Source: a virus (taxonomy: Duplodnaviria > Caudoviricetes). From it: a DNA stretch of 53,687 nt. Of the stretch, positions 4,761 through 52,290 are shown in pieces. The stretch lies in the IMG/VR virus record IMGVR_UViG_3300037462_000020, positions 1-53,687 of that record. The stretch is one strand, 5' to 3'. The notes under the pieces were generated by a model that saw only the letters and a list, made by a program, of their open reading frames with translations, made no database searches and was not told the DNA's origin. Every line of letters starts with the position of its first letter. The first letter of the stretch is position 1. Made by a program: the position numbers and the translations under genes.

Positions 4761-4812
4761 TCGCAAGATATAACAATTGTCAGAAACGGCAGAATGTGCC
4801 ATTTCTGACAGT

Positions 4813-6336
4813 ATGACCACACTCAGCTCGAAACACCCTCAGTATTCTGCTGTCCTACCGGACTGGACGCTGATGCGCGATGCGTATCGGGGCGCTCGTC
4901 AGGTCAAGAACAAGGGTGCGCTGTATCTGCCTCCGACCAAGGCTCACATCATCGATGGATATGGGACCAACAAGGAGTCTGTCGGTCAAAAGGATTATGA
5001 GGCTTACAAGCTGCGGGCTCGTTTCCCGAACTTTGTGCGTGAAGCGGTCCAGATGGCGATCGGCATGATGCACAGTCAGCCTCCGATCATCGAAATGCCC
5101 AAGGCGATGCAGGGTATCAAGAGTTCGAAGGGTGAGCCACTGGAGGCTCTTCTTCGCAAGATCAACACCGAGCAGTTGATCACTGGACGCGTCGGCATCA
5201 TGGCTGACCTTCCGACCAATCCCGCTCCCGGAGAAGATCTGCCGTATCTGGCGACTTATGTCACGGAGCGAGTGATCAATTGGGACGATGGCCGTGTCGA
5301 GCAGATCGTTCCGCAGACGCTGAACTTCGTCGTTCTGGACGAGAGCGAGCAGCAGCGTATCACCGGCTTCGAATGGGAAGCCAAAGAGAAGTATCGAGTT
5401 CTCATCATCGGCGACGAACTACAGAACGAGACTCGTGGTCTCTATGTTCAGGCGGTCTTCGAAGAAGAGATGTATGATCCTTCGAAGCTGAAAGCGCCGT
5501 CGTGGCGGGGTCGAACTCTCGAGAAGATTCCGTTCGTGTTCGTGAACTCCTGTGATATCACGAGCGATGTCGATGATCCACCGCTGCTGGATCTCGGCGA
5601 TATCTGCATGGCGATCTATCGCGGCGAGGCCGACTATCGCCACAATCTCTACATGCAGGGTCAGGATACGCTGGTCACCATCGGCGGTGGCTTCGAAGAT
5701 ACCGATAAGGTTCGTGTCGGCGCGGGCGCTCGTCTCGATCTGCCCCAAGGTGCTGATGCGAAGTATATCGGAGTGAACTCCGCTGGTCTCCAGGAACAGC
5801 GTGAGGCCCTTGGGCGTTTGGAATCTCGGGCGGGTTCCATGGGCGCTCAAACTCTGGACACCACCTCCAGGGAACGCGAGAGCGGCGACTCGTTGCGGAT
5901 CCGAGTCGCCGCCCGCACGGCCGATATGAACCAGATCGTCGAATCGGGGGCGCTCGCTCTCGAGAACATTCTGAAGATCTGTGCTGAATGGATGGGCGAG
6001 AACCCTGAGGAAGTCAAGGTCAAGCCCAACAAGGAATTCGGCGAGATGCCGCTCACTGGCCAGACGATGGTCGAAATGGCGACGGCTCGCAACCTCGGCT
6101 TCCCGATCAGTGCGAAGACGATGCACGACCTTGCTCGCAAGCGTCGCATCACTCAGCGCACTTACGAAGAAGAATTGGCTGAGGCGAAGAAGGAAGATTC
6201 TATGGAGGACTTCCCCTTCGCCAAGGCTGATACGGGTGATCGCTCGGAAGATCAACCGAACGACGACCCGGACAACCCGCGCTCTGGAAAGCAAGGGTCA
6301 CAACAACAGAAACCGCCGAGTGAATCGGCTAAATAG
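4813..6336 (+). CDS. portal protein (DUF4055-like)
   Basis: Follows terL; HPQY...LYLP...Y..Y..RA.F.N, IPFVF and PPLLDL motifs. Confidence 0.9.
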   Translation: MTTLSSKHPQYSAVLPDWTLMRDAYRGARQVKNKGALYLPPTKAHIIDGYGTNKESVGQKDYEAYKLRARFPNFVREAVQMAIGMMHSQPPIIEMPKAMQGIKSSKGEPLEALLRKINTEQLITGRVGIMADLPTNPAPGEDLPYLATYVTERVINWDDGRVEQIVPQTLNFVVLDESEQQRITGFEWEAKEKYRVLIIGDELQNETRGLYVQAVFEEEMYDPSKLKAPSWRGRTLEKIPFVFVNSCDITSDVDDPPLLDLGDICMAIYRGEADYRHNLYMQGQDTLVTIGGGFEDTDKVRVGAGARLDLPQGADAKYIGVNSAGLQEQREALGRLESRAGSMGAQTLDTTSRERESGDSLRIRVAARTADMNQIVESGALALENILKICAEWMGENPEEVKVKPNKEFGEMPLTGQTMVEMATARNLGFPISAKTMHDLARKRRITQRTYEEELAEAKKEDSMEDFPFAKADTGDRSEDQPNDDPDNPRSGKQGSQQQKPPSESAK

Positions 6337-6346
6337 GAGATAGGGT

Positions 6347-7177
6347 ATGGACCCGCTCGAACTTGAGTATGACAGCCTTTCGGCTGTTCCCGAAGCTTTC
6401 CGCGGTCTCTTCAGTGAGAAAGATGGCAAGGCTGTTCTGACCGGAATCAACGGTCTGAAGACCCAGAACGACATCAACAATCTGCAAGAGGCCCTCCGCA
6501 AGGAGCGCAGTGATCACGCCGCTGCCAAGGCCGCGCTGCATCCCTGGAATTCTTTCGGCAAGAAGCCCGAGGAACTTCAGGCTCAGCTCGATCGCATCGC
6601 TGAACTCGAGGCTGCCGCCTCTGGCAAGGTCGATGACAAGAAGCTGAACGAACTGGTCGAAGCCCGTCTTGGGCAGAAGGTCGGCCCGATCGAGCGTCAA
6701 CTTCGGGAGAATACCACTCTCCTGGAAACCGTCACCCGCGAGCGGGACACTTTCCGCGATCAGCTTTTCCGTCGCGAGATGACCGACATCGTTCGCAACA
6801 TCGCCACCGAGATGAAGGTGGTTCCCAGCGCGATGGCCGACGTCGAACTCTTCGCTCAGTTCGCTCTGGAGCGTCAAGAGGATGGCACCTTCATCACGAA
6901 GTCTGGCATTCCCGGCGTGACGCCTGGAGTCGACGCCAAGACTCTGCTTCGTGAGATGCAGAAACAGCGGCCTCACTGGTGGCCTGCCTCGGCCGGAGGC
7001 GGTGCTGGTGGCGGAACGGGTGGCATCAACGGTGACAAGAACCCGTGGTCGGCTCAGCACTGGAATCTCACCGAGCAGGGCAAGATCGTCCGCGAGCATG
7101 GCATGGCCAAGGCTCAGGAACTGGCGAAACTCGCTGGTTCTCACGTCGGCGCGACGAAGCCTGCACAGAAAAAGTGA
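6347..7177 (+). CDS. capsid scaffolding protein
   Basis: Coiled-coil body; C-terminal PHWW..S.GGGAGG and NPWS...WNLTEQ motifs. Confidence 0.85.
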   Translation: MDPLELEYDSLSAVPEAFRGLFSEKDGKAVLTGINGLKTQNDINNLQEALRKERSDHAAAKAALHPWNSFGKKPEELQAQLDRIAELEAAASGKVDDKKLNELVEARLGQKVGPIERQLRENTTLLETVTRERDTFRDQLFRREMTDIVRNIATEMKVVPSAMADVELFAQFALERQEDGTFITKSGIPGVTPGVDAKTLLREMQKQRPHWWPASAGGGAGGGTGGINGDKNPWSAQHWNLTEQGKIVREHGMAKAQELAKLAGSHVGATKPAQKK

Positions 7178-7179
7178 CC

Positions 7180-34685: not shown

Positions 34686-35918
34686 ATGCAGTTCTCACCA
34701 GAGCAGGATGCTGCTCTACGAAAAGCGGACGACTGGTTTCGCAACGGCGACAAGCATGTGTTCCACTTCTTTGGGTATGCTGGCACAGGCAAGACGACGC
34801 TGGCCCGCCACCTCGCACAGAACATAGATGGCGACGTTCTGTTCGCCGCCTACACAGGCAAGGCCGCGCATGTGCTGAAGAGCAAAGGCTGCGAGAATGC
34901 CTCCACGATCCATTCGTTGATCTATCACAGTCGAGACAAGAGCCGCGCTCGCCTCAAGCATCTTGAGGAACAGCTTGAGATCCTTCTCAAGGAACTGATC
35001 GACGCTCGCATCGAAGACTTCGACAATCACCCGAAGGTTCGTGAACTCCGCAAGGAGATCAAGCATGAAATCGACAACGCCGAACAGCCGATGTTCATTC
35101 GCAACGATGACAGCATCGTGAAAGACGCCGAGTTGGTGATCATTGACGAATGCTCCATGGTTGACGCCAGAATGGGCGAAGACCTTCTCTCGTTCGGAAC
35201 TCCTGTTCTCGTCTTGGGCGATCCTGCTCAGTTGCCGCCCGTCGGTGGTGCTGGCTATTTCACCGAGGGTGTTCGACCAGATGTCATGTTGACCGAGATC
35301 CATCGTCAGGCCGAGGAAAGTCCGATCCTTCGGATGGCGACCAAGGTTCGCAACCAAGAATCTCTGGAACTCGGTGACTATGGACAGAATTGCAAGGTTC
35401 TACCCAAGGGACACAAGCTGGACCCAGAAGAGGTTCTGGCCTACGATCAAGTTCTCGTCGGCAAGAACGCAACGCGCCGATCCAGCAACAAGCGCATTCG
35501 TCAGCTGAAAGGTCATCATGACCTCTACCCTGTAATCGGTGACCGTTTGGTTTGCTTGAGGAACAATAGTGAGTTAGGCTTGCTGAACGGGGCGATCTTT
35601 CACGTTGCTGATGTCACTGGTGTAATGGACCAGAAGGTGTTCATGTCCATCACGCCTGAAGACAGCATCGTCTCGGTGGAGGTCGGCGCTCACGAACACT
35701 ACTTCCTCGGCAAAGAGGACGAGTTGAAGTGGTTCGAACGGCGCGAAGCACAGGAGTTTGACTACGGTTACGCGCTGACCGTTCATAAGTCCCAAGGTTC
35801 GCAATGGGACTCTGTCTGTCTTTTCGACGAATCATGGTGCTTCCGCAACGATCGTTGGCGGTGGCTCTATACAGGAATAACCCGCGCCGCTGACTCAGTC
35901 ACCGTCGTCCGCATGTAG
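34686..35918 (+). CDS. SF1B helicase (RecD/Dda-like)
   Basis: GYAGTGKTT, IDECSM, GDPAQLPPV, HRQA, TVHKSQGSQW and YTGITRA motifs. Confidence 0.93.
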   Translation: MQFSPEQDAALRKADDWFRNGDKHVFHFFGYAGTGKTTLARHLAQNIDGDVLFAAYTGKAAHVLKSKGCENASTIHSLIYHSRDKSRARLKHLEEQLEILLKELIDARIEDFDNHPKVRELRKEIKHEIDNAEQPMFIRNDDSIVKDAELVIIDECSMVDARMGEDLLSFGTPVLVLGDPAQLPPVGGAGYFTEGVRPDVMLTEIHRQAEESPILRMATKVRNQESLELGDYGQNCKVLPKGHKLDPEEVLAYDQVLVGKNATRRSSNKRIRQLKGHHDLYPVIGDRLVCLRNNSELGLLNGAIFHVADVTGVMDQKVFMSITPEDSIVSVEVGAHEHYFLGKEDELKWFERREAQEFDYGYALTVHKSQGSQWDSVCLFDESWCFRNDRWRWLYTGITRAADSVTVVRM

Positions 35919-35931
35919 AAGAGAGGAACCA

Positions 35932-37776
35932 ATGACACCACAGGAGTTCAGACGAATGTATGGACCAACAAACCCGGACTGCGACCTCGTTCACGCAGAG
36001 AAATATCGGGGCGAGAACGAGACCTTTCGCGAAGCCGCCAATCGCTGGTCTGGCTTTCTTCAGGACAGCCACGATCACTATATGGCTTTCCGTGACATCT
36101 CCCTCTATCAGCGTTTCATGCCTCCGGGACGTGTTCAGGCCGGGGCTGGTTCGCTCAAAAACGTGACGCTCTACAACTGCTTCGTGATGCCGACCATTCA
36201 CGACAGCTTCACGGACGGACCTTCCCAGGAAGAGATCAACAGCATTCCTCCGGGCTACCATGCAGCCGCTTCGATCATGGACGTCGCCAAGATGGCCGCG
36301 ATTACCATGCGTCAGGGTGGTGGCGTCGGCTACGACATCAGCAGTCTGCGTCCCAAGGGCGACATGATCAAGGGTGTTCAATCACTCACCGACGGGCCGC
36401 TCGCGTTCGCTCCTATCTATGACGCCGTGTGCCGCGCTACCTCTTCGGCAGGCAATCGTCGCGGCGCACAGATGCTGGTGATGCGAATCGACCATCCCGA
36501 TATCGAGGCCTTCATTCGTGCGAAGCAGGTCTCCGATCCGTCGATTCCGTATGACATGCGCCCGCTCCGTGGGTTCAACATGTCCGTCGCTGTGACCGAC
36601 AAGTTCATGGAATGCCTCGCCTCCGGCAAGCCGTTCCCGCTCCAGTTCGGTGGCCGCGTCTATCGCGAAGTCGATCCCCACGCTCTGTGGGACATGATCA
36701 TGCGGGGAACCTACGATTGGGCGGAGCCGGGAGTTCTGTTCATCGACACCATCAATCGCATGAACAATCTGTGGTATTGCGAGAATATCGCCGCCACGAA
36801 TCCCTGCGGTGAGCAGCCGCTTCCTCCCTATGGTGCATGTCTTCTCGGAAGCTTCAACCTCGTGAAGTATCTGAAGAAGGACAGCGAGGGTGCCTACTAC
36901 TTCGACTACGATATGCTGAAAGCTGATATTCCGCATGTCGTTCGGGCCATGGACAACGTGATCGATCGGTCGCGCTATCCGCTGCCTCAGCAACGGGTGG
37001 AAGCCCAGAGGAAGCGGCGCATGGGTCTCGGTGTGACCGGCCTCGCCAACGCTATCGAAGCGATGGGCGCTCCCTATGGCTCGCCTCTCTTCCTGGATAT
37101 CCAGAATCAGATCATGGGCACGATCAATCGTGAATGCTATCGTGCTTCTGCTCTGCTGGCCAAGGAGAAGGGCGCGTTTCCGCTGTTCGACTCCGAACGC
37201 TACTTGCAGGGCGAGTTCATCAAGACGCTCGACGATGAGACTCGTGATCTGATCAAGAAGTATGGCATCCGCAACTCGCACCTGACTTCGGTCGCGCCGA
37301 CTGGCACGATCAGCTTCACCGCTGACAACGTGTCCTCCGGCATCGAGCCTGTGATCGCCTACGAACAGAAGCGTCGAGTCATCGTTCCCGGTGGTCATCG
37401 GATCGTGACGGTTCCTGACTATGGCGTCTCTTCCTTGGGCGTTCGTGGTCGCACTGTCGCCAGCAATGAGATCTCGGCCAAGGAGCATATCGGTGTTCTC
37501 TGCACAGCGCAGATGCACATCGATTCGGCTTGCTCCAAGACCGTGAACGTTCCTGCGAACTTCTCGTTCGATGACTTCAAGGGCCTCTACATCATGGCCT
37601 ACGAAGGCGGCGCGAAGGGCTGCACGACCTACCGTCCGGCTGGAAACTACGATGAGCCGATCAAGGCTGCGGAAGCTGAGAAGGCCGCTGACGAGGCTGA
37701 ACAGCGTGAGCAGCCTGAGGCCTGCGGTTGGGATCCGATCACGGGTGTCCGCACGGGGGCCTGCGCCGAGAACTGA
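35932..37776 (+). CDS. nrdJ: class II (B12-dependent) ribonucleotide reductase
   Basis: TNPCGEQPL, NCF, GGGVG and APTGTIS motifs; C-terminal Cys pair; no beta-subunit gene in the window. Confidence 0.9.
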   Translation: MTPQEFRRMYGPTNPDCDLVHAEKYRGENETFREAANRWSGFLQDSHDHYMAFRDISLYQRFMPPGRVQAGAGSLKNVTLYNCFVMPTIHDSFTDGPSQEEINSIPPGYHAAASIMDVAKMAAITMRQGGGVGYDISSLRPKGDMIKGVQSLTDGPLAFAPIYDAVCRATSSAGNRRGAQMLVMRIDHPDIEAFIRAKQVSDPSIPYDMRPLRGFNMSVAVTDKFMECLASGKPFPLQFGGRVYREVDPHALWDMIMRGTYDWAEPGVLFIDTINRMNNLWYCENIAATNPCGEQPLPPYGACLLGSFNLVKYLKKDSEGAYYFDYDMLKADIPHVVRAMDNVIDRSRYPLPQQRVEAQRKRRMGLGVTGLANAIEAMGAPYGSPLFLDIQNQIMGTINRECYRASALLAKEKGAFPLFDSERYLQGEFIKTLDDETRDLIKKYGIRNSHLTSVAPTGTISFTADNVSSGIEPVIAYEQKRRVIVPGGHRIVTVPDYGVSSLGVRGRTVASNEISAKEHIGVLCTAQMHIDSACSKTVNVPANFSFDDFKGLYIMAYEGGAKGCTTYRPAGNYDEPIKAAEAEKAADEAEQREQPEACGWDPITGVRTGACAEN

Positions 37777-37806
37777 ACTATTTGCCAAGAGCGCGACAAA
37801 TAGTGC

Positions 37807-37836
37807 TTGCCTCCAGCGTCAGACCCGTGGTAGTGT
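37807..37836 (+). promoter_or_regulatory. sigma70-type promoter with leader hairpin at 37844-37865
   Basis: TTGCCT-18-TAGTGT. Confidence 0.6.
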
Positions 37837-37892
37837 TCTGATGTTGGAGGCAATGGTGCTTCCAAGGCAAATGTGCAGAAATGGAGTCACCC

Positions 37893-38606
37893 ATGACCAA
37901 GACCATCGCCTTCCTGGGCAAAGACTACACGCAGGCCGCTCTCGCCGCCATGACCGACGAGTCGCTGCTCGAACTCCGGAACCTCGTCGCCTCCAACCTC
38001 GGTGTGGCCTCGATCCGCGGCTTCAAGGACCACGATCACGCTGTCGAGCAGACCTGGAAGGCGCTCGAGAAGTTCGAGTCCACCGCTGCCTCGGAAGCTG
38101 GCGAAGCCGGTCCGGCCGAGGAAAAGCCCAAGAAGGCCAAGGCTCCGAAGGAACCCAAGGAACGGAAGCTGGCCAAGTCGTCCGGCGCGAGCCTCGTCAA
38201 GCGTCCGACCCGCAAGATGTTCGCCACCATCAAGAAGACCGGCGAGCATGATGGGACGCAGGGCCGTCAGCATCGCTGGCCGAACTACAAGGACGGCATG
38301 ACCATCGTCGACGTGATCGAGACCGAAGGCACGGAACCCTGGGACGTCTACAACTGGCAGTCGAAGGGCATCATGACCGTGGTCGAGGCCACCGACGAGG
38401 AATACGCCGAGCGTCGCGCCGCGTGGTATGCGAAGCACGGCCTGACCGACCCGGACCTGTCCAAGGAGCAGAAGGCCAAGGAGAAGGCCGACGCCAAGGC
38501 GAAGCGCGAGGCCGACATGGCCGCGAAGAAGGCTGAACGCGAGGCTGCGGCGAAGGCCAAGGCTGATGCGAAGGCCGCTGCTGCTGCGGCTCCGGCCGAG
38601 GCCTGA
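37893..38606 (+). CDS. Lys/Ala-rich hypothetical protein, possibly DNA-binding
   Basis: RBS GGAG; strong codon bias; KA-rich tail. Confidence 0.8.
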   Translation: MTKTIAFLGKDYTQAALAAMTDESLLELRNLVASNLGVASIRGFKDHDHAVEQTWKALEKFESTAASEAGEAGPAEEKPKKAKAPKEPKERKLAKSSGASLVKRPTRKMFATIKKTGEHDGTQGRQHRWPNYKDGMTIVDVIETEGTEPWDVYNWQSKGIMTVVEATDEEYAERRAAWYAKHGLTDPDLSKEQKAKEKADAKAKREADMAAKKAEREAAAKAKADAKAAAAAAPAEA

Positions 38607-38611
38607 CCTTC

Positions 38612-39535
38612 ATGGTCAGCCTCAGGGCATCCGCGTTCTACGATTACCTCAACGAACGTGAAGCGATCCGCCTTCGAAAGGAGGCGGATCGACTTGCTTC
38701 GGAGAACTTCGAAACTCCGCAAGGTCCACCGTGGACTAAGGATCAGATCCTTCGGGAATACAAGTTCACGAACGTGCGCCGCCACCACGATCGCACGAGC
38801 AACGAACTTCGTCAGAGATTCTACGGTCCGCACTTCTTCGATGATCGACGTTCGATCCTCATGAACTGCGCTCTGTTCCGATACTTCGGGACATGGGAAT
38901 TTGCTTGGGCTGTCGGCTGGCAAGATTACGAAAACTTCGACTTCGAGATGATCAAGGACGTTGCCTTCGATCGGCTCGCTGCTGGAGAGCGTGTGTTCAC
39001 CGGAGCCTACGTCATCACGAACCAAGGCATCTCAGCACCGAAGCAGGAAGTGGTCGTCGACTACTTTCTCAAGGACCTGTGGAAAGCCGTTCCTGAACTG
39101 ATGGAAATCGTCCAGAAGACCCACAAGTGGGAGAAGGTCGCAGACCGTATGCGCCAGATCGGCGGATTCGGTGGCACTGGCTTCATGACGAAGGAAGTCC
39201 TTCTGGATACGACCTACACCGGATTCTGGGAGAAGAAGTTCGAGCATCCCAAAGACGGAAGCTTCTCGTTTCCTGTCGACTGGGACAGCTGGACACCGAT
39301 CGGTCCCGGAGCGAGGCGTGGTGCTGCTCGCGTCTTGGGTGATGACTCTGCTACACCGATCAGCGAAAGCAAGTCGATGTGGGTGATCACTGAACTGCTC
39401 GAGTGGCAGAAGATCTACTGGGAACACGAAGACGTTCTCGTTCCCACGGACATTCAATTCGCGCTCTGTGAGTTCGACAAGTATGAGCGCGTCCGTCTCG
39501 GACAGGGCAAGCCTCGGAGTCGGTATCGTGCCTGA
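38612..39535 (+). CDS. 5-hmdU DNA kinase (aGPT-Pplase1/HMUDK helical family)
   Basis: ERE.IR..KE...PPWT.D.IL..YKFTNV.R..DR.S, GPGA.RG and LCEFDKY.R motifs. Confidence 0.85.
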   Translation: MVSLRASAFYDYLNEREAIRLRKEADRLASENFETPQGPPWTKDQILREYKFTNVRRHHDRTSNELRQRFYGPHFFDDRRSILMNCALFRYFGTWEFAWAVGWQDYENFDFEMIKDVAFDRLAAGERVFTGAYVITNQGISAPKQEVVVDYFLKDLWKAVPELMEIVQKTHKWEKVADRMRQIGGFGGTGFMTKEVLLDTTYTGFWEKKFEHPKDGSFSFPVDWDSWTPIGPGARRGAARVLGDDSATPISESKSMWVITELLEWQKIYWEHEDVLVPTDIQFALCEFDKYERVRLGQGKPRSRYRA

Positions 39536-39719
39536 TTGGGCATTCTGGCTCGTGGTCTGGTGGGCAGGGTGGTTTCTCATCCTGCTCACTTGGTATGAGA
39601 ATAACAAGAAGGAAGCACTTTCCGGATGGGTGTGTTTCTTCATGTTTTTTATGGCTGGATTTGCGCCGATCGTAGGCTTGATCATCGCAGTAAGAAAAGG
39701 CTTTAGAAAAGACAACTAG
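39528..39719 (+). CDS. small membrane protein
   Basis: Two hydrophobic segments; GTG start overlapping the previous stop. Confidence 0.55.
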   Translation: MPDWAFWLVVWWAGWFLILLTWYENNKKEALSGWVCFFMFFMAGFAPIVGLIIAVRKGFRKDN

Positions 39720-39722
39720 CAC

Positions 39723-39752
39723 TTGTCTTTTACAGCCGCCCCGTGCTACTAT
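39723..39752 (+). promoter_or_regulatory. sigma70-type promoter
   Basis: TTGTCT-18-TACTAT. Confidence 0.65.
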
Positions 39753-39781
39753 AAATCACACGAAGCAGCGGGGCATGAAAT

Positions 39782-41071
39782 ATGAAAATTCTGGTTGCGC
39801 TTCACCAAGTCATGGATCTTGGCGGCATCATCAACCACACAGAGCAACTGATCGGCGGCCTGAAAGATCTCGGCCACACAGTTCATCTGAAGCAGTTCGT
39901 CTATGGGATGAACGCATTCGACCAGAGGCGTGACGGTGACTTCATCGTCGGCCCAAGTGGAATTCCGCACAATCAGGGCAAGGGCTGGAACTTCACGCGA
40001 ATGCAGCGTGTTCCCTACAAGGGCGGCGCGAACCTGACATCTGCCAAGCAGATCCTCTCTGGGTATGACCTCGTGATCTGGACCGTGCCTGTTCCTTCCA
40101 AGAACAAGGAGAACCTCGGCAATCACGAATGGGTGGAACTGTATGACCTTCCGCCCAAGGTGAAGCAGATCGCCTTCGTTCATGACGGCAACATTCGCCA
40201 AGGTGCGCCTCACATTCTGGCGATCCATGACAAGCTGTCTGGTCTGGCCTGTGTCCATGGCTGTGCGCTCAACGGCTCCGACTTCATTCCCGTTCCGCGG
40301 GCGCTGATCCTCAATCCCCAGGAGATGCCGGTTCGTGGCGTCGCAGCTTGGTCTTCCAAGAAGCCGGGATTCGTGAACATGCAGACCTTCAAGGCTTGGA
40401 AACATGCTCATGAACTCATTCAAGCGATCGCCTACATGCCCAACAAGGAAGATGGCGAACTGCGCGAAGTCGCTGGCATGGGCATCGAGTATCAGTATAT
40501 GACCAGCGAGGACAAGTGCAAGGAAGAATATTTCCACGGTCCTGCTGACGACGCGTGGTTCGGCGGTATGCGATTCTGGGAAGCTGCCGAGATGAACGGC
40601 ATGGTCCATCACGGCTACTGGAACACGAATGAAGTCGCCGCGTGGCTGACGCAGGCTCGGGTCTTGGTTGACCCTAGCTGGTCCAGAAAGTATTCGGCGA
40701 TCGGCGGTCACTGGAACCGTGTCGTCGTTGACGCCATGATCCATGGTGTGATCCCCGTCGCCACTGAGATGGGCATGGGTTCGGAGATCTTTGAGGAGGG
40801 TGTTCATTACGTTGGAATTCCCGCCGGAGGTAACGATCCTCAGCAATACGCTGACATCATCCTCGAGACCAGCCACATGAACTATCGTCAAGCGGAGAAT
40901 TTCCGAGACGCTGCTCTCGATGTGCTTCCTCTTTTCGACCGCAAGACCGTTGCTCAGCAGGTCGTCGATCTTGCGAACGGAAACCTCGACACCGTCACCG
41001 GTTCCTTGAAAGGCGAGTTCGCTGACAAGGCCAGTGACATCATGTTCAACCACTTTGGAGTCCTGATGTAA
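39782..41071 (+). CDS. GT-B fold glycosyltransferase, putatively DNA-modifying
   Basis: MKIL...GG...H...L..GL..LGH.V N-terminus; LVDPS and VDAM..G.IPV C-terminal motifs. Confidence 0.75.
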   Translation: MKILVALHQVMDLGGIINHTEQLIGGLKDLGHTVHLKQFVYGMNAFDQRRDGDFIVGPSGIPHNQGKGWNFTRMQRVPYKGGANLTSAKQILSGYDLVIWTVPVPSKNKENLGNHEWVELYDLPPKVKQIAFVHDGNIRQGAPHILAIHDKLSGLACVHGCALNGSDFIPVPRALILNPQEMPVRGVAAWSSKKPGFVNMQTFKAWKHAHELIQAIAYMPNKEDGELREVAGMGIEYQYMTSEDKCKEEYFHGPADDAWFGGMRFWEAAEMNGMVHHGYWNTNEVAAWLTQARVLVDPSWSRKYSAIGGHWNRVVVDAMIHGVIPVATEMGMGSEIFEEGVHYVGIPAGGNDPQQYADIILETSHMNYRQAENFRDAALDVLPLFDRKTVAQQVVDLANGNLDTVTGSLKGEFADKASDIMFNHFGVLM

Positions 41072-42042
41072 TGCAGATTATCTCTTCCCGAAACGTCAAC
41101 GAGGCCCTTCTGCTTGGGCTTCATGCCGTGAATGAATACGGCGTTCTCCGTGACAGCCGCAACGGTCCTGTCAAGGTGTTCCGGACTCCGGTGACAACGA
41201 TCTATGAGCGGCCGACCGAGCGTGTCGTGTTCTACCCAGAGAGGGACGCCAACCCGTTCTTCCACTTTATGGAAGGACTGTGGATGATCGCTGGTCGCAA
41301 TGATGTCGAGTGGATCAGCCGGTTCAACTCGTCCATCGTGAACTACAGCGATGATGGTGTCACCTTCCATGGGGCCTACGGCTATCGCTGGCGGAAACAT
41401 TTCGGCTTCGATCAGCTGGACATCATCGCCCACCTGCTTCGCACGAACCCTGACGATCGCCGTATCGTTCTGCAGATGTGGGATCCTCGCGTCGACCTCG
41501 CCCGTGGCGGCAAGGACTTTCCCTGCAATACGGCAATCAAGTTTCGTGTGCGGGATGGTGAACTTGACATGACCGTCGAGAACCGCAGCAACGACATGAT
41601 CTGGGGAGCCTACGGCGCGAATGCCGTTCATTTCTCAATGCTTCAGGAGTTCATGGCAGCGTGGACTGGTTTCCGTGTCGGCCACTACTGGCAGGTCTCT
41701 ACGAACTTCCACGCCTACGTCTCTACGATGGAGAAACACGCTTCTCTGCTGACGCTGTCTCCCGGCTTCGACGACTACAGCATCGGAGGCGTGGAGCCTT
41801 TCCCGATGGTGAACACGGACATCGAGACCTGGATGCAGGAACTCGATATGTTCATCAATGAAGGCGCTGTCCTCGGCTTCCAGGACAAGTTCTTCAAGAA
41901 GGTGGCGATTCCCATGCTGCTCGCGTGGCAAGCCTACAAGAACAAGGAGTATGGAAAGGCGCAGTCCATTCTCACAGAGACCTGCGTCGCAACCGACTGG
42001 CGCAAGGCCGGTATCGAGTGGATCGAGCGGAGGATCAAGTGA
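41071..42042 (+). CDS. thymidylate synthase homolog, probable dUMP hydroxymethylase
   Basis: YG.RW, D.PCN and RSND..WG...AN motifs (Asn implies a dUMP substrate); clustered with HMUDK. Confidence 0.85.
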   Translation: MQIISSRNVNEALLLGLHAVNEYGVLRDSRNGPVKVFRTPVTTIYERPTERVVFYPERDANPFFHFMEGLWMIAGRNDVEWISRFNSSIVNYSDDGVTFHGAYGYRWRKHFGFDQLDIIAHLLRTNPDDRRIVLQMWDPRVDLARGGKDFPCNTAIKFRVRDGELDMTVENRSNDMIWGAYGANAVHFSMLQEFMAAWTGFRVGHYWQVSTNFHAYVSTMEKHASLLTLSPGFDDYSIGGVEPFPMVNTDIETWMQELDMFINEGAVLGFQDKFFKKVAIPMLLAWQAYKNKEYGKAQSILTETCVATDWRKAGIEWIERRIK

Positions 42043-42591
42043 ATGTATAAACTTCTCACGAACCAAGAGCGTGTGAAGTTTCTTCGTGAGGCGGGTGACG
42101 TGCAGAGACTGCATGTCATTCGCACCATCGGGGAATACTCGAATGCACAGCATTCCTTCAACATGCTGGCGATCCTTCGCCTTCTCTGGCCGGACGCACC
42201 CATCCAGCTTCTCTGGGCTATCGTGGAGCATGATGTGCCTGAGCGACTGATCGGAGACATTCCCTCTCCTTCTATTCATTACGGCGGCTTCATCGAGCCG
42301 TTCTCGATGATGGAGATGGAGCAGAGGATTCTCGGCGAACTGTTCGGCGAGTTCCATCACACCAACCTCGACGATCTGCTTCAGAGTTGGCTCAAGGGTC
42401 TGGATCTGCTCGAACTCTACCTGTATGCGAAGGACCAACTTCGCCTCGGGAACCGCAACCTGGAGACGATGCGAGTGTTCATCGAGGAACGCTTCAAGCA
42501 GAAAGCGTCTCTGTATCCTGAACCCATTCTGAATCTCTTCTACGAGTGCAAGAATTCGGATTGGGTCCACCTTCCTGACCTTGGAGCCTGA
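42043..42591 (+). CDS. HD-domain 5'-deoxynucleotidase-like protein
   Basis: V.R.H, S.A.HS, HD.PE...GDIP.P and D.LE motifs. Confidence 0.85.
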   Translation: MYKLLTNQERVKFLREAGDVQRLHVIRTIGEYSNAQHSFNMLAILRLLWPDAPIQLLWAIVEHDVPERLIGDIPSPSIHYGGFIEPFSMMEMEQRILGELFGEFHHTNLDDLLQSWLKGLDLLELYLYAKDQLRLGNRNLETMRVFIEERFKQKASLYPEPILNLFYECKNSDWVHLPDLGA

Positions 42592-42593
42592 TC

Positions 42594-43205
42594 ATGAACG
42601 ACGGAACAGAACCTGACAATCGCTACGTCGCCCAAGAAGGAGGCGACCACTATCAGGCCGAGTATCAGCATTGGGACTGGGTGACTGATATCGGCATGGG
42701 CTATCTTCCTGGGAACGCCACGAAGTATGTCGCTCGCTGGCGCAAGAAGAACGGGCTGGCCGATCTCAAGAAGGCCATGACCTACATCGACAAGATGATC
42801 GCCATTCGCCTTGTTGATCCCATCGCCGTGTTCAACCATCCGATCGGCAATGGATACAAGCTGGCGAAATGCACCGAGAGGTTCGTCGCTGTGAACCAGC
42901 TTGGTGACAAGGAACGGTCCATCTGCGAGGCCTTGTCCTACAAGTGCGATGACGCAATGTTGCGCGTTGCTCGTGATACGCTGGCGAGCCTTGTGCTGGC
43001 CGCTGGCAGGGCACAAGCCCCCGCCGCTACCCTACCACCCGCCGCCCCCGTTGCGGCCCCTGCTGGCGCGGCCTGTGGCGCGGCTGGCGGTGCTGTAGGG
43101 CAGGCCCCCGCCACCAGCACGGCCACAGAGGTCCACAGAAAGGGTCTCGACGGCATGGAGCATCCTTTCGGCTATGATGACTGGCATGAAGGTGGTCCGA
43201 CGTGA
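42594..43205 (+). CDS. DUF3310-like (T7 gp1.7-type nucleotide kinase) protein with Ala/Pro-rich tail
   Basis: GG.HY...GNA.KY..R..KKNG..DL.KA..Y motif. Confidence 0.75.
   Translation: MNDGTEPDNRYVAQEGGDHYQAEYQHWDWVTDIGMGYLPGNATKYVARWRKKNGLADLKKAMTYIDKMIAIRLVDPIAVFNHPIGNGYKLAKCTERFVAVNQLGDKERSICEALSYKCDDAMLRVARDTLASLVLAAGRAQAPAATLPPAAPVAAPAGAACGAAGGAVGQAPATSTATEVHRKGLDGMEHPFGYDDWHEGGPT
42987..43140 (+). repeat. GA/TC-free conserved element, copy B (inside a CDS)
   Basis: No GA/TC at 42987-43128; ACCCTACC at 43029; GCCACCAGCA-N5-ACAG-N2-GTCCA at 43110. Confidence 0.85.
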
Positions 43206-43318
43206 CGTGGTTCCTCCTCGCGATCTGCGTAATCTTGGTCCTGCTTCCTCCGAAGTGGGACCCTGCAATCAGGCTCAAGGAATGGAACCAGAAACGTGGT
43301 CATCAGAAAGAAAAGTGA
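43202..43318 (+). CDS. small membrane protein (38 aa, LPPKWDPAIRLKEW)
   Basis: GTGA coupling; hydrophobic N-terminus. Confidence 0.5.
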   Translation: MTWFLLAICVILVLLPPKWDPAIRLKEWNQKRGHQKEK

Positions 43319-45359
43319 TCCCAACAAGGGAGGCGCTCTCCAGCTTGGCTTCTTTACTCCTGAAGCCAGATGGTCCCCTCCTTCTATGTCAGATCTACCG
43401 TCTTGGAAGGGCGCAAAGAGAATTGCGATCGACGCAGAAACTCGCGATCCATCTCTCAGCAATGGCCTTGGACCGGGTGCTATCCGAGATGGTTACTCGG
43501 TGGGATGGGCATTCGCCATTGATGGTGGACCAAAGCATTACCTTCCCTTCCGACACGAGGGTGGTGATAACCTACCGATCGAGCAGGTTCTCGGATATCT
43601 GAGAGCACAGATCAAGGACTTCGAGGGAGAGTTCGTCGGAGCGAACCTTTCCTACGATGTTGACTATGGCTACGCTGACGGTTTCGAGTGGAACCCGAAT
43701 GCCAAGTTTCGTGATATTCAGATCGCCGACCCTCTGATCTACGAACTTCACATGAACTACTCGCTGAAAGCAATCGGCGAGAGATATGGCATCCAGTCGA
43801 AGGACGAGAACGTTCTGCTGGAGGCTGCGCGCTCCTTTGGGCTTGACCCCAAGAAAGGGTTGTGGAGACTTCCCGCTCGCTATGTCGGCGAATATGGTGA
43901 GCAAGACGTTACCTCTCCGCTGGAAATCCTCAGTGCCCAAGAGAAGATCATCGAGCAGCGCGGCCTTCGGGAGATCTGGGACCTTGAGTCCGATGTTCTG
44001 CCGGTTCTGGTTCGTATGCGACGCCGTGGTGTTCGCATTGACTTTGATCGTCTTGAGCAGATCGAAATCTGGGCGGAAAATCAAGAGCGAGAAGCCCTGC
44101 GTCTCATCAAGCACGAGACTGGTGTTCAGATCGGCTTCGGTGATGTATGGAAAGCCAACGCTCTGGCTCCTGCTCTTGAAGCGACCGGTATGCGTCTCGG
44201 CAAGACTTCCACTGGCGCACCGCAGATCGACAAGGCGCTGCTGGCTGGAGCGAAGCATCCGGTTGCGAGTGCAGTTCTTCGCGCCCGCAAGGTGAACAAG
44301 ATCCGCACCACTTTCGCAGCATCTATTCGGAAGTATGCGATCAACGGTCGCATCCATTGCAGCTTCCATCAGATCGCTCGGGAGGACGAGGACGGTGACC
44401 AGAAAGGCGTTCGGTATGGACGCCTTTCTGCTGCTGATCCGAACATGCAGCAACAGCCTTCACCGGACCGTGATCCTGAAATTGCTGGAGAATGGCGCAA
44501 GATCTTCATACCAGAGGAAGGAGCGATCTGGGGCTGCAACGACTATTCTCAGCAGGAGCCCCGGTGGACGACTCACTTCGCGGCTGTGATGGATCTACCC
44601 AAGGCGAGAGAAGCTGCCCTCCGTTACCAGAACGACCCGAACACCGACAACCATGAGATGATGACGCGACTCATTCATGGTGACTCTCAGGTCGATGCGT
44701 GGTTGGCAGAGAAGTCTCCCAACTTCAAGGTCAACCGGGGATATGCGAAGAATATCTTTCTCGGCCTGTGCTATGGCGAGGGCGAGGCGAAACTGTGTCA
44801 CGACATCGGCCTTCCCACTCGTTGGGCTTTGATCACTGGATGGGGTGAGTATCGCAGAACCGAACTGTTCGAGCATCGCTACGAAGCGATGTCTGCTCGG
44901 ATGGAGGCTGGCAAGGGATACGTCAAGGAGGTCGCTGGTCCGGAAGGTCGCGATATTCTCGATAACTTCAACAGTGAAGTTCCATATGTCGGAAAGCTGG
45001 CTGAGGCTGCGACTGAAAGAGCCAAAGAGAAAGGCTTCGTCAAAACCATCTTCGGTCGACAGTTGAACTTCGAACGTCGTGATGATGGAACCTACGACTT
45101 CACCCACAAGGCTCTGAACAGAATCATCCAAGGTTCTTCTGCGGATCAGACGAAGCTGGCCATTGTGGAACTAGATCGGGCGGGATACTTCATCCAGCTA
45201 CAGGTTCACGACGAAACTGACGGTAGCTTCGGTTCTGTTGAAGAAGCGAAAGCTGCTGGCGATATCATGAGGGACTGCGTTCTTACTCGCTGTAAGCCGT
45301 GGGTTCCCTTCAAGGTCGATACTGAATGTGGTCCTTCGTGGGGAGAAGTCAAGAAATGA
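43296..45359 (+). CDS. polA: DNA polymerase family A (3'-5' exonuclease plus polymerase)
   Basis: IDAET, GRLS..DPN.QQ, DYSQQEPR, K...LG..YG, N..IQGS.AD and QVHDE motifs. Confidence 0.95.
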   Translation: MVIRKKSDPNKGGALQLGFFTPEARWSPPSMSDLPSWKGAKRIAIDAETRDPSLSNGLGPGAIRDGYSVGWAFAIDGGPKHYLPFRHEGGDNLPIEQVLGYLRAQIKDFEGEFVGANLSYDVDYGYADGFEWNPNAKFRDIQIADPLIYELHMNYSLKAIGERYGIQSKDENVLLEAARSFGLDPKKGLWRLPARYVGEYGEQDVTSPLEILSAQEKIIEQRGLREIWDLESDVLPVLVRMRRRGVRIDFDRLEQIEIWAENQEREALRLIKHETGVQIGFGDVWKANALAPALEATGMRLGKTSTGAPQIDKALLAGAKHPVASAVLRARKVNKIRTTFAASIRKYAINGRIHCSFHQIAREDEDGDQKGVRYGRLSAADPNMQQQPSPDRDPEIAGEWRKIFIPEEGAIWGCNDYSQQEPRWTTHFAAVMDLPKAREAALRYQNDPNTDNHEMMTRLIHGDSQVDAWLAEKSPNFKVNRGYAKNIFLGLCYGEGEAKLCHDIGLPTRWALITGWGEYRRTELFEHRYEAMSARMEAGKGYVKEVAGPEGRDILDNFNSEVPYVGKLAEAATERAKEKGFVKTIFGRQLNFERRDDGTYDFTHKALNRIIQGSSADQTKLAIVELDRAGYFIQLQVHDETDGSFGSVEEAKAAGDIMRDCVLTRCKPWVPFKVDTECGPSWGEVKK

Positions 45360-45544
45360 AAAGCAACCTTCTGGATATTCCTGCTCGGTTCATCGCCGAG
45401 ACAGAGAAGGCGAGAAAGTTCGACGTCGGTCTTAAGGATGCTGTCTGGCTTCCCAAGAGCCAACACGAATGGGATGAGGCAGAAGGAATCATCACTCTGC
45501 CTGAAGATGTGGCCATCGAGAAAGGTATGGAGAATCTCGCATGA
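45356..45544 (+). CDS. hypothetical protein (ETEKA...VWLPKSQ)
   Basis: ATGA coupling at both ends. Confidence 0.7.
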   Translation: MKSNLLDIPARFIAETEKARKFDVGLKDAVWLPKSQHEWDEAEGIITLPEDVAIEKGMENLA

Positions 45545-46038
45545 AATGGAACCAGAAAACGATTCACCAGTGGGGAATCGATACGTTCGGAAATGCTGCC
45601 CTCAACACTCTGGGCGTCGCTATCCGAATGTCGAAGGAAGCGATCGAACTTTCGAACGTTCTCATGAAGCTGGATGATGTCGAGAAGATCTCGATGGAGT
45701 CTGCTGATGTCGCGATCGTTCTCGTTCAGGTTGCGAACTGCATCGGCTTCGATGTTCACGCTGAAGATCAAGCTGTCGAAGAAGTCGACAGTGCGATCGA
45801 CACTGAAATCGATGCCGCCATGATCTTGAACGCAGCGGCTATCGATCTTCTGTCCGCGATCTTCCATGGTGCGGAGAGAACGCAGGTTGTTCTTCAGATC
45901 AGGAAGATCATGACCTGTCTCGGCGCGCTCGAAGAGATCTACGAATTTGATCTGGTTGAGAAGATCCAGGTCAAGATGGAGATCAACGCCGCCCGTCAGT
46001 GGGCTCAGGGTAAAGATGGGAGTTTCCAGCATGTCTGA
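45541..46038 (+). CDS. MazG-like nucleotide pyrophosphohydrolase
   Basis: W...TFG, E..EL, E.ADV.I and KM.IN..R.W motifs. Confidence 0.75.
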   Translation: MKWNQKTIHQWGIDTFGNAALNTLGVAIRMSKEAIELSNVLMKLDDVEKISMESADVAIVLVQVANCIGFDVHAEDQAVEEVDSAIDTEIDAAMILNAAAIDLLSAIFHGAERTQVVLQIRKIMTCLGALEEIYEFDLVEKIQVKMEINAARQWAQGKDGSFQHV

Positions 46039-46462
46039 TCATCACAAGACCCTGATGAACATTGCATGGGCGCACTCTTCGATGAGCCGAGATCCCTCGA
46101 CCAAGGTGGGCGCTGTCATCGTCGATCAAGGCCGCATTGTGTCTTGGGGATACAATCATGTTCCTGAACAGATTCCCCACACCGAAGACATGCTGCACGA
46201 TCGGGAATGGAAATATCCAAGGGTGATCCACGCAGAGCATCACGCGATGTCGCAGATCGGAGTTCATCGACTCAAGTATCCGATCATGTATGTGACGCAC
46301 CATCCCTGCGAACGGTGCGCCGCTGCGATCATTCATGGTGGCATTCGTGAAGTCTACACTCACAGGCCGCCGAGTGAGATGCTGGATCGGTGGCCGGGAA
46401 TGAAGATCGCTGCGGAAATGTTCCTCGAAGCGAAGATTCCGCTGACTTTCGTAGAACTTTAG
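46031..46462 (+). CDS. dCMP deaminase
   Basis: S.DPSTKVGAVI, GYN, HAE and PC.RC motifs. Confidence 0.92.
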   Translation: MSDHHKTLMNIAWAHSSMSRDPSTKVGAVIVDQGRIVSWGYNHVPEQIPHTEDMLHDREWKYPRVIHAEHHAMSQIGVHRLKYPIMYVTHHPCERCAAAIIHGGIREVYTHRPPSEMLDRWPGMKIAAEMFLEAKIPLTFVEL

Positions 46463-46465
46463 CCA

Positions 46466-46494
46466 TTGTCTCGGCGGTGTCAAGCGGCTACTGT
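46466..46494 (+). promoter_or_regulatory. sigma70-type promoter
   Basis: TTGTCT-17-TACTGT. Confidence 0.6.
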
Positions 46495-46519
46495 AAAAGC
46501 CAACTAGAAGGTTCCCATC

Positions 46520-47161
46520 ATGCAATATCATCCCGAATACGATGTCTGGTTCATGGGGCATGGAGATCCCTATGTCTTCACCGAGCAGCGTCGTGATTAT
46601 GGTCGTGTCGCTGAACGGGCCAAGGGTGCTCGTGTCCTGGACTTCGGCGCTCACTGCGGCTTCTTCAACGTGTTTCTAAGTCGCAGCTTCGAGCCCGCCT
46701 CGATCATCTCGGTGGAGCCGGATCGTCGCATGGAAGAGGTTCTGAAGAAGAACGTTCGTCCAGGAACTGAACTGATCATGGCCGCTGTCGTCGATCAGAC
46801 GTATCCCGAGATGTTCATTCCACTGTATCTCGGAAAGACTTTCTCGGCCACCAACTCCATCGAGCCGTTCCGCGGTCGCGAGGAAGTTCAGGTGCCCGTG
46901 GTTCACTTCCAGGAACTTCTGGCAACTGGTGTGAATTTCATCAAGTGTGACTGCGAAGGTGGCGAGTATTCTCTGGACTGGTCCAATCTTCCGACCGAGG
47001 TTCACACCATCGCCATCGAGTTTCACTTCCACCGCCCTTCTTGGGCTACCGAGATGGAGAACATCAACGGTCGTCTTGTCTCTCAGGGCTTCCGTTTTGT
47101 TCGTCGGCCGAAAGTCAACAATTTCCGGAAAGTGGACACGGGGCTCTATGTCAGAGGCTAG
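46520..47161 (+). CDS. FkbM-family SAM-dependent methyltransferase
   Basis: VLDFGAHCG.F, VEPD, IKCDCEGGEY and IEFH motifs. Confidence 0.85.
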   Translation: MQYHPEYDVWFMGHGDPYVFTEQRRDYGRVAERAKGARVLDFGAHCGFFNVFLSRSFEPASIISVEPDRRMEEVLKKNVRPGTELIMAAVVDQTYPEMFIPLYLGKTFSATNSIEPFRGREEVQVPVVHFQELLATGVNFIKCDCEGGEYSLDWSNLPTEVHTIAIEFHFHRPSWATEMENINGRLVSQGFRFVRRPKVNNFRKVDTGLYVRG

Positions 47162-47585
47162 TATGAAGTCGGTGCTGACGAGGGCGCTGTCTTCGTTGGA
47201 CCCTGTCTGTATCGAAAGCCCAAAGACAGGGCTGGGAATTCCCGACGTCAATTTCATTGGAGGATGGTTCGAATGCAAGAATCTGGATGCGTGGCCAAAG
47301 GGAGCGGACACCAATCCGGTGAAGTTCAAGCATCCTCTATCGAAAGAGCAGGGGATCTGGCTATACCGGAGAGCGAGAGCGGGTGGCTTCGCGATGGTCT
47401 GCGCGAAGGTTTCGTGCTCGTGGTTCTTCTTCGACGGAATGTGGATCAAAGATAGATGGGACAAGATGACACGGCAGGACATGATCTTGGAAGCGGATCT
47501 GTATATGCCGAACAAGCTGGAGAAGGAACGGCTGCTGAAATTCATTGCAGAGCGGTCGGAGAACTCACGCCTCGCGAGAAGCTGA
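47148..47585 (+). CDS. PD-(D/E)xK nuclease (VRR-NUC/resolvase-like)
   Basis: IE....GIPD.....W.E.K...EQ..W...R...GG motif. Confidence 0.8.
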   Translation: MSEASMKSVLTRALSSLDPVCIESPKTGLGIPDVNFIGGWFECKNLDAWPKGADTNPVKFKHPLSKEQGIWLYRRARAGGFAMVCAKVSCSWFFFDGMWIKDRWDKMTRQDMILEADLYMPNKLEKERLLKFIAERSENSRLARS

Positions 47586-51780: not shown

Positions 51781-51810
51781 CCTGTGTTAGTGCCTGCATT
51801 GGAGACCAGC

Positions 51811-52290
51811 ATGAGCAGAATCGTATTTGTTGGACAACAGCCTTCTCGATACGAGGACGAGGGCTTTGTTCTGCCCGTTCGTCCTGGAAGTTCCGGCGAC
51901 CGCATCGTCAGAATGATGGGTGTCACCGAACAGGCGTTTCGTGAGAACTTCGACTGTATCAATGTGAGTGCCCGCTACGACCCCGACGGTTTCTCGCCTA
52001 TCTACCATACCAAGGAAGTTCTGAATCTGCGTTCTCTGCTTCGCGGACGCAAGGTTGTTCTCCTTGGGCCAGCCGTTGCGGAAGCTTTCGAGATCGAGCG
52101 GACGAAATACCACTGGTGCGACTGGTTCGATCATCCCAAGTGGGAGGAACACCACGGTCTGTTCAGCGTGATTCCGCATCCGTCTGGCGCGAACAGGCTC
52201 TACAACAATCCCGAGATATTCGAGATGGTGAGAACACATCTCGATTTCATGTGGCAGCAGCGAGATCAGAGGAAGGAATATGTGATGTGA
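51811..52290 (+). CDS. uracil-DNA glycosylase superfamily protein
   Basis: FVGQQPS, VVLLG..VA and IPHPSG.NR.YN motifs. Confidence 0.75.
   Translation: MSRIVFVGQQPSRYEDEGFVLPVRPGSSGDRIVRMMGVTEQAFRENFDCINVSARYDPDGFSPIYHTKEVLNLRSLLRGRKVVLLGPAVAEAFEIERTKYHWCDWFDHPKWEEHHGLFSVIPHPSGANRLYNNPEIFEMVRTHLDFMWQQRDQRKEYVM

Follow-up and report, generated by a model that had tools for sequence, protein, structure and literature searches.

The system of thymidine hypermodification in phages M6, PaMx11 and ViI, which Lee et al. are said to have described in 2018 and 2021, reportedly consists of a 5-hydroxymethyldeoxyuridine (5-hmdU) DNA kinase (5-HMUDK), an aGPT-Pplase2 or amino acid:DNA transferase (AADT), and tailoring enzymes. 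Here we describe a locus in IMGVR_UViG_3300037462_000020, a tailed-phage sequence (Caudoviricetes; an uncultured relative of Pseudomonas phage M6) of 53,687 bp that is analyzed as the whole IMG/VR record and is called the window below. In this locus a clade-1 aGPT-Pplase (Pplase1) and a glycosyltransferase (GT) of the GT-B type adjoin a predicted dUMP hydroxymethylase, a thymidylate synthase (TS) homologue. The locus shares with M6, PaMx11 and ViI its phage family neighborhood (64-69% nucleotide identity over the TS-HD-PolA genes), the 5-hmdU supply genes and a Pplase1 likewise located upstream of the hydroxymethylase. It differs from them in having no P-loop kinase, AADT, pyridoxal phosphate (PLP) enzyme, radical SAM enzyme or FAD tailoring enzyme, and where M6-like phages have Nmad5 it carries the GT-B enzyme. 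We consider it probable, at roughly 0.6, that 5-hmdU in the DNA of this phage is O-glycosylated after replication, yielding a base that resembles base J.

In T-even phages a TS homologue makes a hydroxymethyl-pyrimidine nucleotide and a sugar is attached to it once the DNA is replicated, as we predict for the window. The T-even base is cytosine-derived, whereas that of the window would be uracil-derived (Asn-type enzyme); the GT of the window falls outside PF11440, and T4 has no counterpart of its obligatory Pplase1 partner. Base J of kinetoplastids, a glycosylated 5-hydroxymethyluracil (hmU) in DNA, represents the product class predicted here. However, the hmU of the window would be made before replication by the TS-type enzyme, its GT is a GT-B whereas the base J enzyme JGT is of the GT-A type, and modification is local there but replacement is likely genome-wide here. 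Neither TET/JBP (PF12851) nor TAGT (PF20691) was found in the record.

Co-location of TS, Pplase1 and a glucosyltransferase has already been published for HTVC023P-type pelagiphages, whose TS and aG/PT-PPlase1 are called "partner AMGs" and are grouped near PolA with a 5'-deoxynucleotidase and sometimes a "beta-glucosyl-HMC-alpha-glucosyltransferase" (PMC9599517). The accessible text of that paper neither remarks on the missing kinase and AADT nor proposes a product. Their glycosyltransferase and that of PhiJL001 are GT-A enzymes of the TAGT family, to which the GT-B of the window is unrelated. Phage pathways that combine a 5mYOX/TET or T-dioxygenase with a GT also direct a DNA glycosyltransferase to a 5-hydroxymethyl-pyrimidine, with O-methyltransferases and sugar epimerases co-occurring (PMC13229309), but there a dioxygenase hydroxymethylates on the DNA, and the accessible portions of both sources do not report Pplase1 as a partner (Pyle et al. 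preprint; PMC13229309). Co-occurrence of GT with ThyS or 5mYOX genes has been published at survey level (bioRxiv 2023.12.21.572611, PMC13229309). It seems that no paper has dealt with the kinase-less logic, the GT-B family, the alternation of GT-A and GT-B beside Pplase1 or a measured glycosyl-5-hmdU in a phage; Iyer et al. (2013) and Lohr et al. (2005) may show the neighborhood.

The Pplase1, glycosyltransferase and hydroxymethylase genes

The GT gene product matches PF00534 (Glycos_transf_1; E 3.4e-7, 30.4 bits vs a cut-off of 26.4), as do 57 of 59 members of its family. The AlphaFold2 (AF2) model (pLDDT 94.3, pTM 0.92) has a GT-B fold, for which Foldseek returned GT4-like retaining enzymes and the T4 DNA alpha-glucosyltransferase (AGT) at E 1e-11 to 1e-9, with HepE, PimA and MshA at about 1e-11. 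The closest structural match of the model is AGT, and in a language-model feature search of the ESM-Atlas the PF11440 AGT cluster ranked seventh (score 0.98), above bacterial GT4 clusters. In a collection of 5.8 billion proteins, 340 belong to the family at E<=0.001. The 120 relatives listed are 53-97% identical, lie on contigs often of about 60-67 kb and carry generic Joint Genome Institute (JGI) labels only, such as "glycosyltransferase involved in cell wall biosynthesis"; 64 columns are invariant in the 59-member alignment.

The neighboring gene, which an earlier sequence-only reading of the window had labeled HMUDK, encodes a helical protein and not a P-loop kinase. Its sole Pfam match is PF18723 ("5-hmdU DNA kinase, helical domain"; E 6.4e-33, 114.8 bits with a cut-off of 25, residues 8-297 of 307), and no P-loop domain is present. 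In PaMx11 and MW2 the kinase, PF18748, is a separate open reading frame (ORF) of 188-189 aa directly upstream of the PF18723 ORF, and PaMx11 gp49 is the kinase according to Table 1 of PMC8989533. The gene order in SN1 is aGPT-Pplase2, PLP enzyme, radical SAM enzyme, nucleotide kinase, aGPT-Pplase1, Nmad5 and hydroxymethylase (PMC9476957); MW2 has the identical order, with PF18724, PF18748, PF18723 and PF18757. The PF18723 homologues of SN1 and AN14 are labeled "pyrophosphorylase clade 1" in GenBank. Judged from the separate kinase ORF, the SN1 and MW2 gene order and these labels, the PF18723 protein is a clade-1 aGPT-Pplase, equivalent to M6 ORF055/gp55. The latter was omitted from the minimal M6 reconstitution and the product was not lost; no function is assigned to it in the accessible text of the same report (PMC8989533).

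Pplase1 is a paralogue of the AADT. A wide structure search with the predicted model gave a helical fold of the helix-hairpin-helix (HhH) DNA-glycosylase type, related to Pplase2. Foldseek with this model returned nothing at E<=0.001, hhalign against a two-sequence Pplase2 alignment gave a probability of 0.2%, and the Pplase1 profile found only noise among PDB sequences. The window protein shares 61-85% identity with 19 members of its clade, in which 99 columns are invariant. All of 17 diverse Pplase1 proteins have the invariant motif LCE(F/W/Y)xK near the C-terminus, among them PaMx11 gp50 and those of MW2 and the phages of about 41 kb, and PhiJL001 gp19 has it as well. The nucleophile of PUGT is Cys247 (PMC11472151), and the catalytic Cys247 of PaMx11 gp46 sits in a similar C-terminal "LCKWK" helix; Cys286 of the window protein is a candidate counterpart, for which hhalign gave the probability stated above. 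A separate observation concerns residues 132-141, TGAYVITNQGISAPKQEVVV, which are nearly invariant in the clade and form the sole segment of the model with pLDDT <50; judged from the model, this stretch may be a candidate substrate- or DNA-binding loop. Complex prediction of Pplase1 with the GT scored 0.00, which is taken as evidence neither way.

The hydroxymethylase shares 50-53% identity with PaMx11 gp51 and with its MW2 counterpart, and its nearest solved relative is the CMP hydroxymethylase MilA (E 4.8e-25, vs ~3.5e-14 for true TS). The catalytic Cys of the PCN motif and the Asn of the GAN motif, the Asn/Asp specificity position, are retained in all 36 homologues, in agreement with the Asn type proposed by the sequence-only reading. 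By sequence it is the TS homologue that supplies 5-hmdU in M6/ViI-type pathways, an activity that is predicted for the window enzyme.

Blastn of the region found 94 GenBank phage records alike at 60-80% identity, confined to the TS-HD-PolA genes. The top records were PaMx11, the Bordetella phages MW2, CN1 and FP1, and M6-like phages, all Mesyanzhinovviridae.

Neither PF18748 (P-loop 5-hmdU DNA kinase) nor PF18724 (aGPT-Pplase2/AADT) was matched in the window, even at E<=10. By Pfam, 30 of its ORFs contained no PLP, radical SAM, kinase or AADT family, and tblastn with the kinase, AADT and Nmad5 of PaMx11 and MW2 reached E 0.3 at best, both in the window and in two complete relatives. The sequence-only reading had recognized no amino acid transferase, PLP or radical SAM enzyme in the window, and it was right in this; its premise that a kinase activates 5-hmdU is not supported. 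The window is linear, with a CheckV completeness of 85%. A transferase or kinase concealed in the missing ~15% of the genome was therefore sought in 13 near-complete relatives with the same GT (CheckV 97-100%, terminal repeats in four). Neither PF18748 nor PF18724 was detected at E<=1 in any of the 13, while identical searches recovered both in MW2 and PaMx11, and such a concealed gene is ruled out for these two families by the complete relatives. Twenty larger ORFs that two complete relatives (G006 and G002) carry beyond the portion covered by the window matched only exonuclease, pyrimidine-dimer glycosylase, uracil-DNA glycosylase (UDG) and DUF families by Pfam; the kinase and AADT families were missing, as were PLP and radical SAM enzymes. 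The 241-aa ORF (p241) upstream of Pplase1 was considered as a hidden kinase and rejected: it has no Walker A motif and no Pfam match and is unlike the PaMx11 and MW2 kinase, Nmad5 and DUF3489 proteins.

GT searches of IMG/VR gave 41 distinct contigs, in two of which the contig end cuts the region upstream of the GT. In all 39 contigs with an upstream flank, Pplase1 and the GT are no more than 1.8 kb apart, and the TS homologue comes next wherever the contig extends. The order in the main clade is nrdA, p241, Pplase1, GT, TS, HD, DUF3310 and PolA, and in the window the GT stop overlaps the hydroxymethylase start by 1 nt. Five contigs of ~41-42 kb have the order GT, Pplase1, TS and HD with overlapping stops and starts, and their proteins are distant from those of the window (PolA 24-27%, GT 37-40% and Pplase1 26-28% identical). 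The adjacency of GT, Pplase1 and hydroxymethylase thus spans phages with polymerases of 24-32% identity and a permuted gene order.

Partners of Pplase1 in other phages

Fifteen diverse Pplase1 queries led to no fewer than 554 confirmed places in IMG/VR, from which the best 80 were kept, 79 of them with a Pplase1 ORF. A glycosyltransferase was found in 62 of these 79 loci, 16 with GT-B and 46 with a TAGT-like GT-A of about 260 aa. A P-loop kinase was present in five (one also with AADT), and 12 had none of GT-B, TAGT and kinase, part of these 12 being incomplete sequences. The enzyme by which T2 and T6 attach a second glucose to glucosyl-hydroxymethylcytosine belongs to the TAGT family (PMC13216743, PMC13390438). 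In the loci without GT-B, 38 of the 92 ORFs between Pplase1 and TS matched PF20691 (best E 5.8e-26); others were FkbM (four), radical SAM/SPASM (four), NAD epimerase/GDP-mannose dehydratase (two), PF18748 (two) and Nmad5 (one). PF18748 was not among the 25 families listed for the 143 ORFs upstream of Pplase1. These upstream ORFs included 13 with PF03013, a T4 endonuclease V-like pyrimidine-dimer DNA glycosylase, and six AlkB-like 2OG-Fe(II) oxygenases. The PF03013 ORFs (~160-170 aa) lie directly upstream of Pplase1 in loci of the L131-L157 type, and one is also found in L032 (4933-5463, minus strand).

A FastTree tree of 81 Pplase1 proteins, in which branches are long and support values are local and SH-like only, showed that the partner type switches at least 12 times. 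The clade of the window protein (17 members, SH-like support 98) contains 13 loci with GT-B, three with TAGT and one without a detected partner. The census and the tree together show that a single slot next to Pplase1 and the hydroxymethylase is occupied in turn by two unrelated GT folds. Pplase1 is clearly part of the proposed pathway.

Other genes are inserted in this slot. L092 and L093, close relatives of the window without GT-B, have an NDP-sugar epimerase/dehydratase between Pplase1 and TAGT (L092 5904-6854, PF01370, 1.8e-51, with TS after TAGT; L093 6088-7038). The order in L097 is Pplase1, radical SAM/SPASM, FkbM, TAGT and TS (tailoring genes at 5578-7178), in L064 it is Pplase1, FkbM, radical SAM/SPASM, GT-B and TS (tailoring genes at 4284-5003 and 4922-6004), and in L145 it is GT-B, radical SAM/SPASM, Pplase1 and TS. 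FkbM thus occurs inside the Pplase1-GT slot together with radical SAM/SPASM in L064-L066 and L097, with either GT type, and both may be sugar-tailoring enzymes.

A cultured phage with this gene set is PhiJL001 (AY576273.1; Keylargovirus, Mesyanzhinovviridae), whose locus (L159, 4272-8121) comprises gp19, a Pplase1 (HMM 1.7e-79), gp22, a TAGT annotated as "glucosyl transferase", gp23 (Nmad5), gp24 (TS), gp25 (HD) and gp26 (DUF3310). PF18748 was not found anywhere in the PhiJL001 record.

Supply genes and other neighbors

The features of the region are collected in Table 1. The genes named by the sequence-only reading are present by Pfam and PHROG, on the plus strand and at or near the positions it had given. 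Its HD and MazG-like assignments were borne out by PHROG and by homology of relatives, and were weak by Pfam.

Table 1. Genes of the modification locus in the window and the matches on which their assignment is based.
Feature	Position	Strand	Match
Ribonucleotide reductase large subunit (nrdA), upstream border of the variable cassette	35932..37776	+	PF02867 E 1e-102
241-aa protein (p241) with Ala/Lys-rich tail, between nrdA and Pplase1	37881..38606	+	No Pfam or PHROG match
Clade-1 aGPT-Pplase (Pplase1), 307 aa, HhH DNA-glycosylase-like fold, invariant Cys286-Glu287	38612..39535	+	PF18723 "HMUDK_hel"
Small predicted two-helix membrane protein, 63 aa	39528..39719	+	Sequence reading
GT-B glycosyltransferase, predicted 5-hmdU DNA glycosyltransferase	39782..41071	+	Glycos_transf_1; AF2 model
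Predicted dUMP hydroxymethylase, TS homologue, Asn type	41071..42042	+	TS family E 5.3e-23; phrog_5131 1e-124
HD-domain 5'-deoxynucleotidase-like protein	42043..42591	+	Pfam HD 0.0026 (below cut-off); phrog_6047 9e-31
DUF3310 protein	42594..43205	+	PF11753 2.1e-7; phrog_5839 1.7e-23
Family A DNA polymerase (PolA)	43296..45359	+	PF00476 8.5e-40; phrog_17 4.9e-96
MazG-like/dNTP pyrophosphohydrolase-like protein (weak)	45541..46038	+	PF04447 5.2e-5, partial; phrog_9236 7e-6
dCMP deaminase, dUMP supply	45947..46462	+	PF00383 2.5e-20
FkbM-family methyltransferase, candidate tailoring enzyme	46520..47161	+	PF05050 2.5e-7

The TS, HD and DUF3310 genes of the window are spaced 0-2 bases apart, and the supply module as a whole predicts 5-hmdU DNA. 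The HD protein is 35-38% identical to the 5'-deoxynucleotidase gene products of MW2 and PhiJL001, its homologue in L071 matches YfbR-like proteins at 1e-13, and it probably edits the dTMP/dNMP pool. The DUF3310 protein may phosphorylate 5-hmdUMP, because PHROG families with this domain are annotated as nucleotide kinase; its match to one of that annotation, phrog_236 (7e-13), covers residues 14-70 only. The true start of the dCMP deaminase is probably downstream of the listed TTG, since that codon places the gene in a 92-nt overlap with the MazG-like ORF (45947-46038) and the domain begins at residue 32. The FkbM methyltransferase of the window is a tailoring candidate of low confidence.

The ribonucleotide reductase gene is syntenic in those related loci that extend far enough upstream, and p241 is 51-78% identical within the main clade. 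The ORF of the small membrane protein fills the gap between Pplase1 and the GT, and its GTG start overlaps the Pplase1 stop. Its hydrophobic part was matched by tblastn in 15 of 38 loci, each time in this gap, and is missing where the gap is only ~95 bp. The G+C content of the window is 50-62%, and a scan of 35800-47300 for promoters and terminators gave counts at shuffle level (4 vs 4.7 and 9 vs 8.2). A UDG-superfamily protein (PF03167, E 1.5e-5; 51784-52290, plus strand) is encoded in this phage, for which a uracil-derived base is predicted, and the gene is kept in relatives (L032 12932-13402, minus strand; L096 3891-4397).

The proposed pathway and its alternatives

From the observed gene content, absences, synteny, folds and co-occurrence we infer the chemical steps and, with them, the identity of the sugar, its anomer and the extent of modification. 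The dCMP deaminase would provide dUMP, which the Asn-type TS homologue would convert to 5-hmdUMP; the DUF3310 kinase-like protein and host kinases would raise this to 5-hmdUTP before replication, while the HD and MazG-like enzymes would trim the dTTP and dUTP pools, and PolA would incorporate 5-hmdUTP. With T4 AGT as a model, the GT-B enzyme would then flip out 5-hmdU and move a sugar from a host NDP-sugar onto its hydroxyl, and the product would be a 5-(glycosyloxymethyl)-deoxyuridine similar to base J. Neither a phosphorylation step nor an amino acid transfer would take part, and Pplase1, with its Cys-Glu pair, would belong to this pathway and have 5-hmdU as its target too. Direct O-glycosylation of 5-hmdU is the most economical explanation, because the kinase and AADT are missing, the GT has an AGT-like fold, its linkage is conserved, TAGT alternates with it and sugar-handling genes are found in the slot; the sugar-tailoring genes there suggest that the sugar stays in the product. 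The sequence-only reading had likewise placed the cluster in the realm of 5-hmdU hypermodification without an amino acid branch. Its sugar-modified 5-hmdU remains the best explanation, with the GT tied to the cluster. Its phospho-sugar option has no specific support, since a P-loop kinase is missing, and the TC context that it predicted for the modification has no basis in the sequence.

Several points weigh against direct glycosylation. A GT alone suffices in T4, so this model leaves the constant retention of Pplase1 unexplained. AGT leads other GT-B folds by just ~1.5 Z units, and PF11440 matched none of the 59 GT family members at E<=5, their sequence being ordinary GT4-like. The GT-B family is absent from GenBank phages (tblastn, 50,697 records, no match), and a pelagiphage-type relative 40% identical to the GT also had no GenBank phage match by tblastn. 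The window is incomplete (~85%), the census of the best 80 loci is skewed toward relatives of the window Pplase1, and the kinase HMM was built from two seeds, although kinases are rare by the Pfam censuses of this sample as well.

The retention of Pplase1 would be accounted for if this protein acted first, Cys286 placing a group on the C5-methylene of 5-hmdU by AADT-type chemistry and the GT decorating that group. The invariant LCE motif and the similar helix around Cys247 of PaMx11 gp46 fit such an order, as does the T2/T6 TAGT, which adds a second sugar onto an existing one (PMC13216743). However, AADT requires a phosphorylated substrate (PMC8989533) and an enzyme to activate it is missing here, the top structural match of the GT-B acts directly on a hydroxymethyl-pyrimidine, and the comparison of the two cysteines has the hhalign probability of 0.2% given above; we regard this order as improbable. 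It is no easier to believe, and in our view very unlikely, that the sugar serves as an activating group, with the GT substituting for the kinase and Pplase1 displacing the glycoside to add a nucleophile or hydride, leaving a non-sugar base or thymine. Pplase1 does adjoin a hydroxyl-derivatizing enzyme in both settings (the kinase in M6-like phages, the GT here), its Cys-Glu pair is conserved, and in PhiW-14 thymine, too, arises from hmU within the DNA polymer. Yet a glycoside is a worse leaving group than a phosphate, the NDP-sugar epimerase/dehydratase, FkbM and radical SAM genes of the slot are hard to square with a discarded sugar, and in lysates the M6 reaction could do without M6 gp55 (PMC8989533).

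The GT might also act on something other than DNA, for example a glycan of the host envelope, a protein of the phage or a small molecule; its place in the cluster would then be incidental, and the DNA would contain plain 5-hmdU or T. Its generic GT4-like Pfam match, the cell-wall-biosynthesis labels of its relatives and the adjoining gene for a small membrane protein would suit this role. We give it hardly any credence: the GT adjoins Pplase1 and the hydroxymethylase in all 39 evaluable contigs across diverged polymerases and a permuted order, its stop overlaps the hydroxymethylase start, its top structural match is AGT, and close relatives swap in TAGT, a family of DNA glycosyltransferases, at the same slot.

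A bolder proposal takes Pplase1 not for an accessory to kinase-based modification but for the central enzyme of a sugar-thymidine pathway that is widespread and independent of phosphorylation. Its Cys-Glu pair would act on 5-hmdU or on its glycosylated form, with GT-A and GT-B enzymes as exchangeable partners, giving one or more undescribed hypermodified thymidines, possibly with a linkage other than a simple O-glycoside. This is speculative and rather unlikely; if true, hundreds of marine and freshwater phages, including pelagiphages, would carry such thymidines.

If O-glycosylation of 5-hmdU is correct, phage DNA hypermodification would gain a new branch, a "phage base J" formed with neither kinase nor dioxygenase, and the clade-1 aGPT-Pplase, so far without a role in the M6/ViI literature, would receive its first testable function. 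The enzymes of the cassette could be tools to tag 5-hmU. The pairing of GT and Pplase1 seems common in the loci sampled, in a family reaching the abundant pelagiphages, and it therefore bears on restriction evasion, modification-dependent defenses and the sequencing behavior of such genomes.

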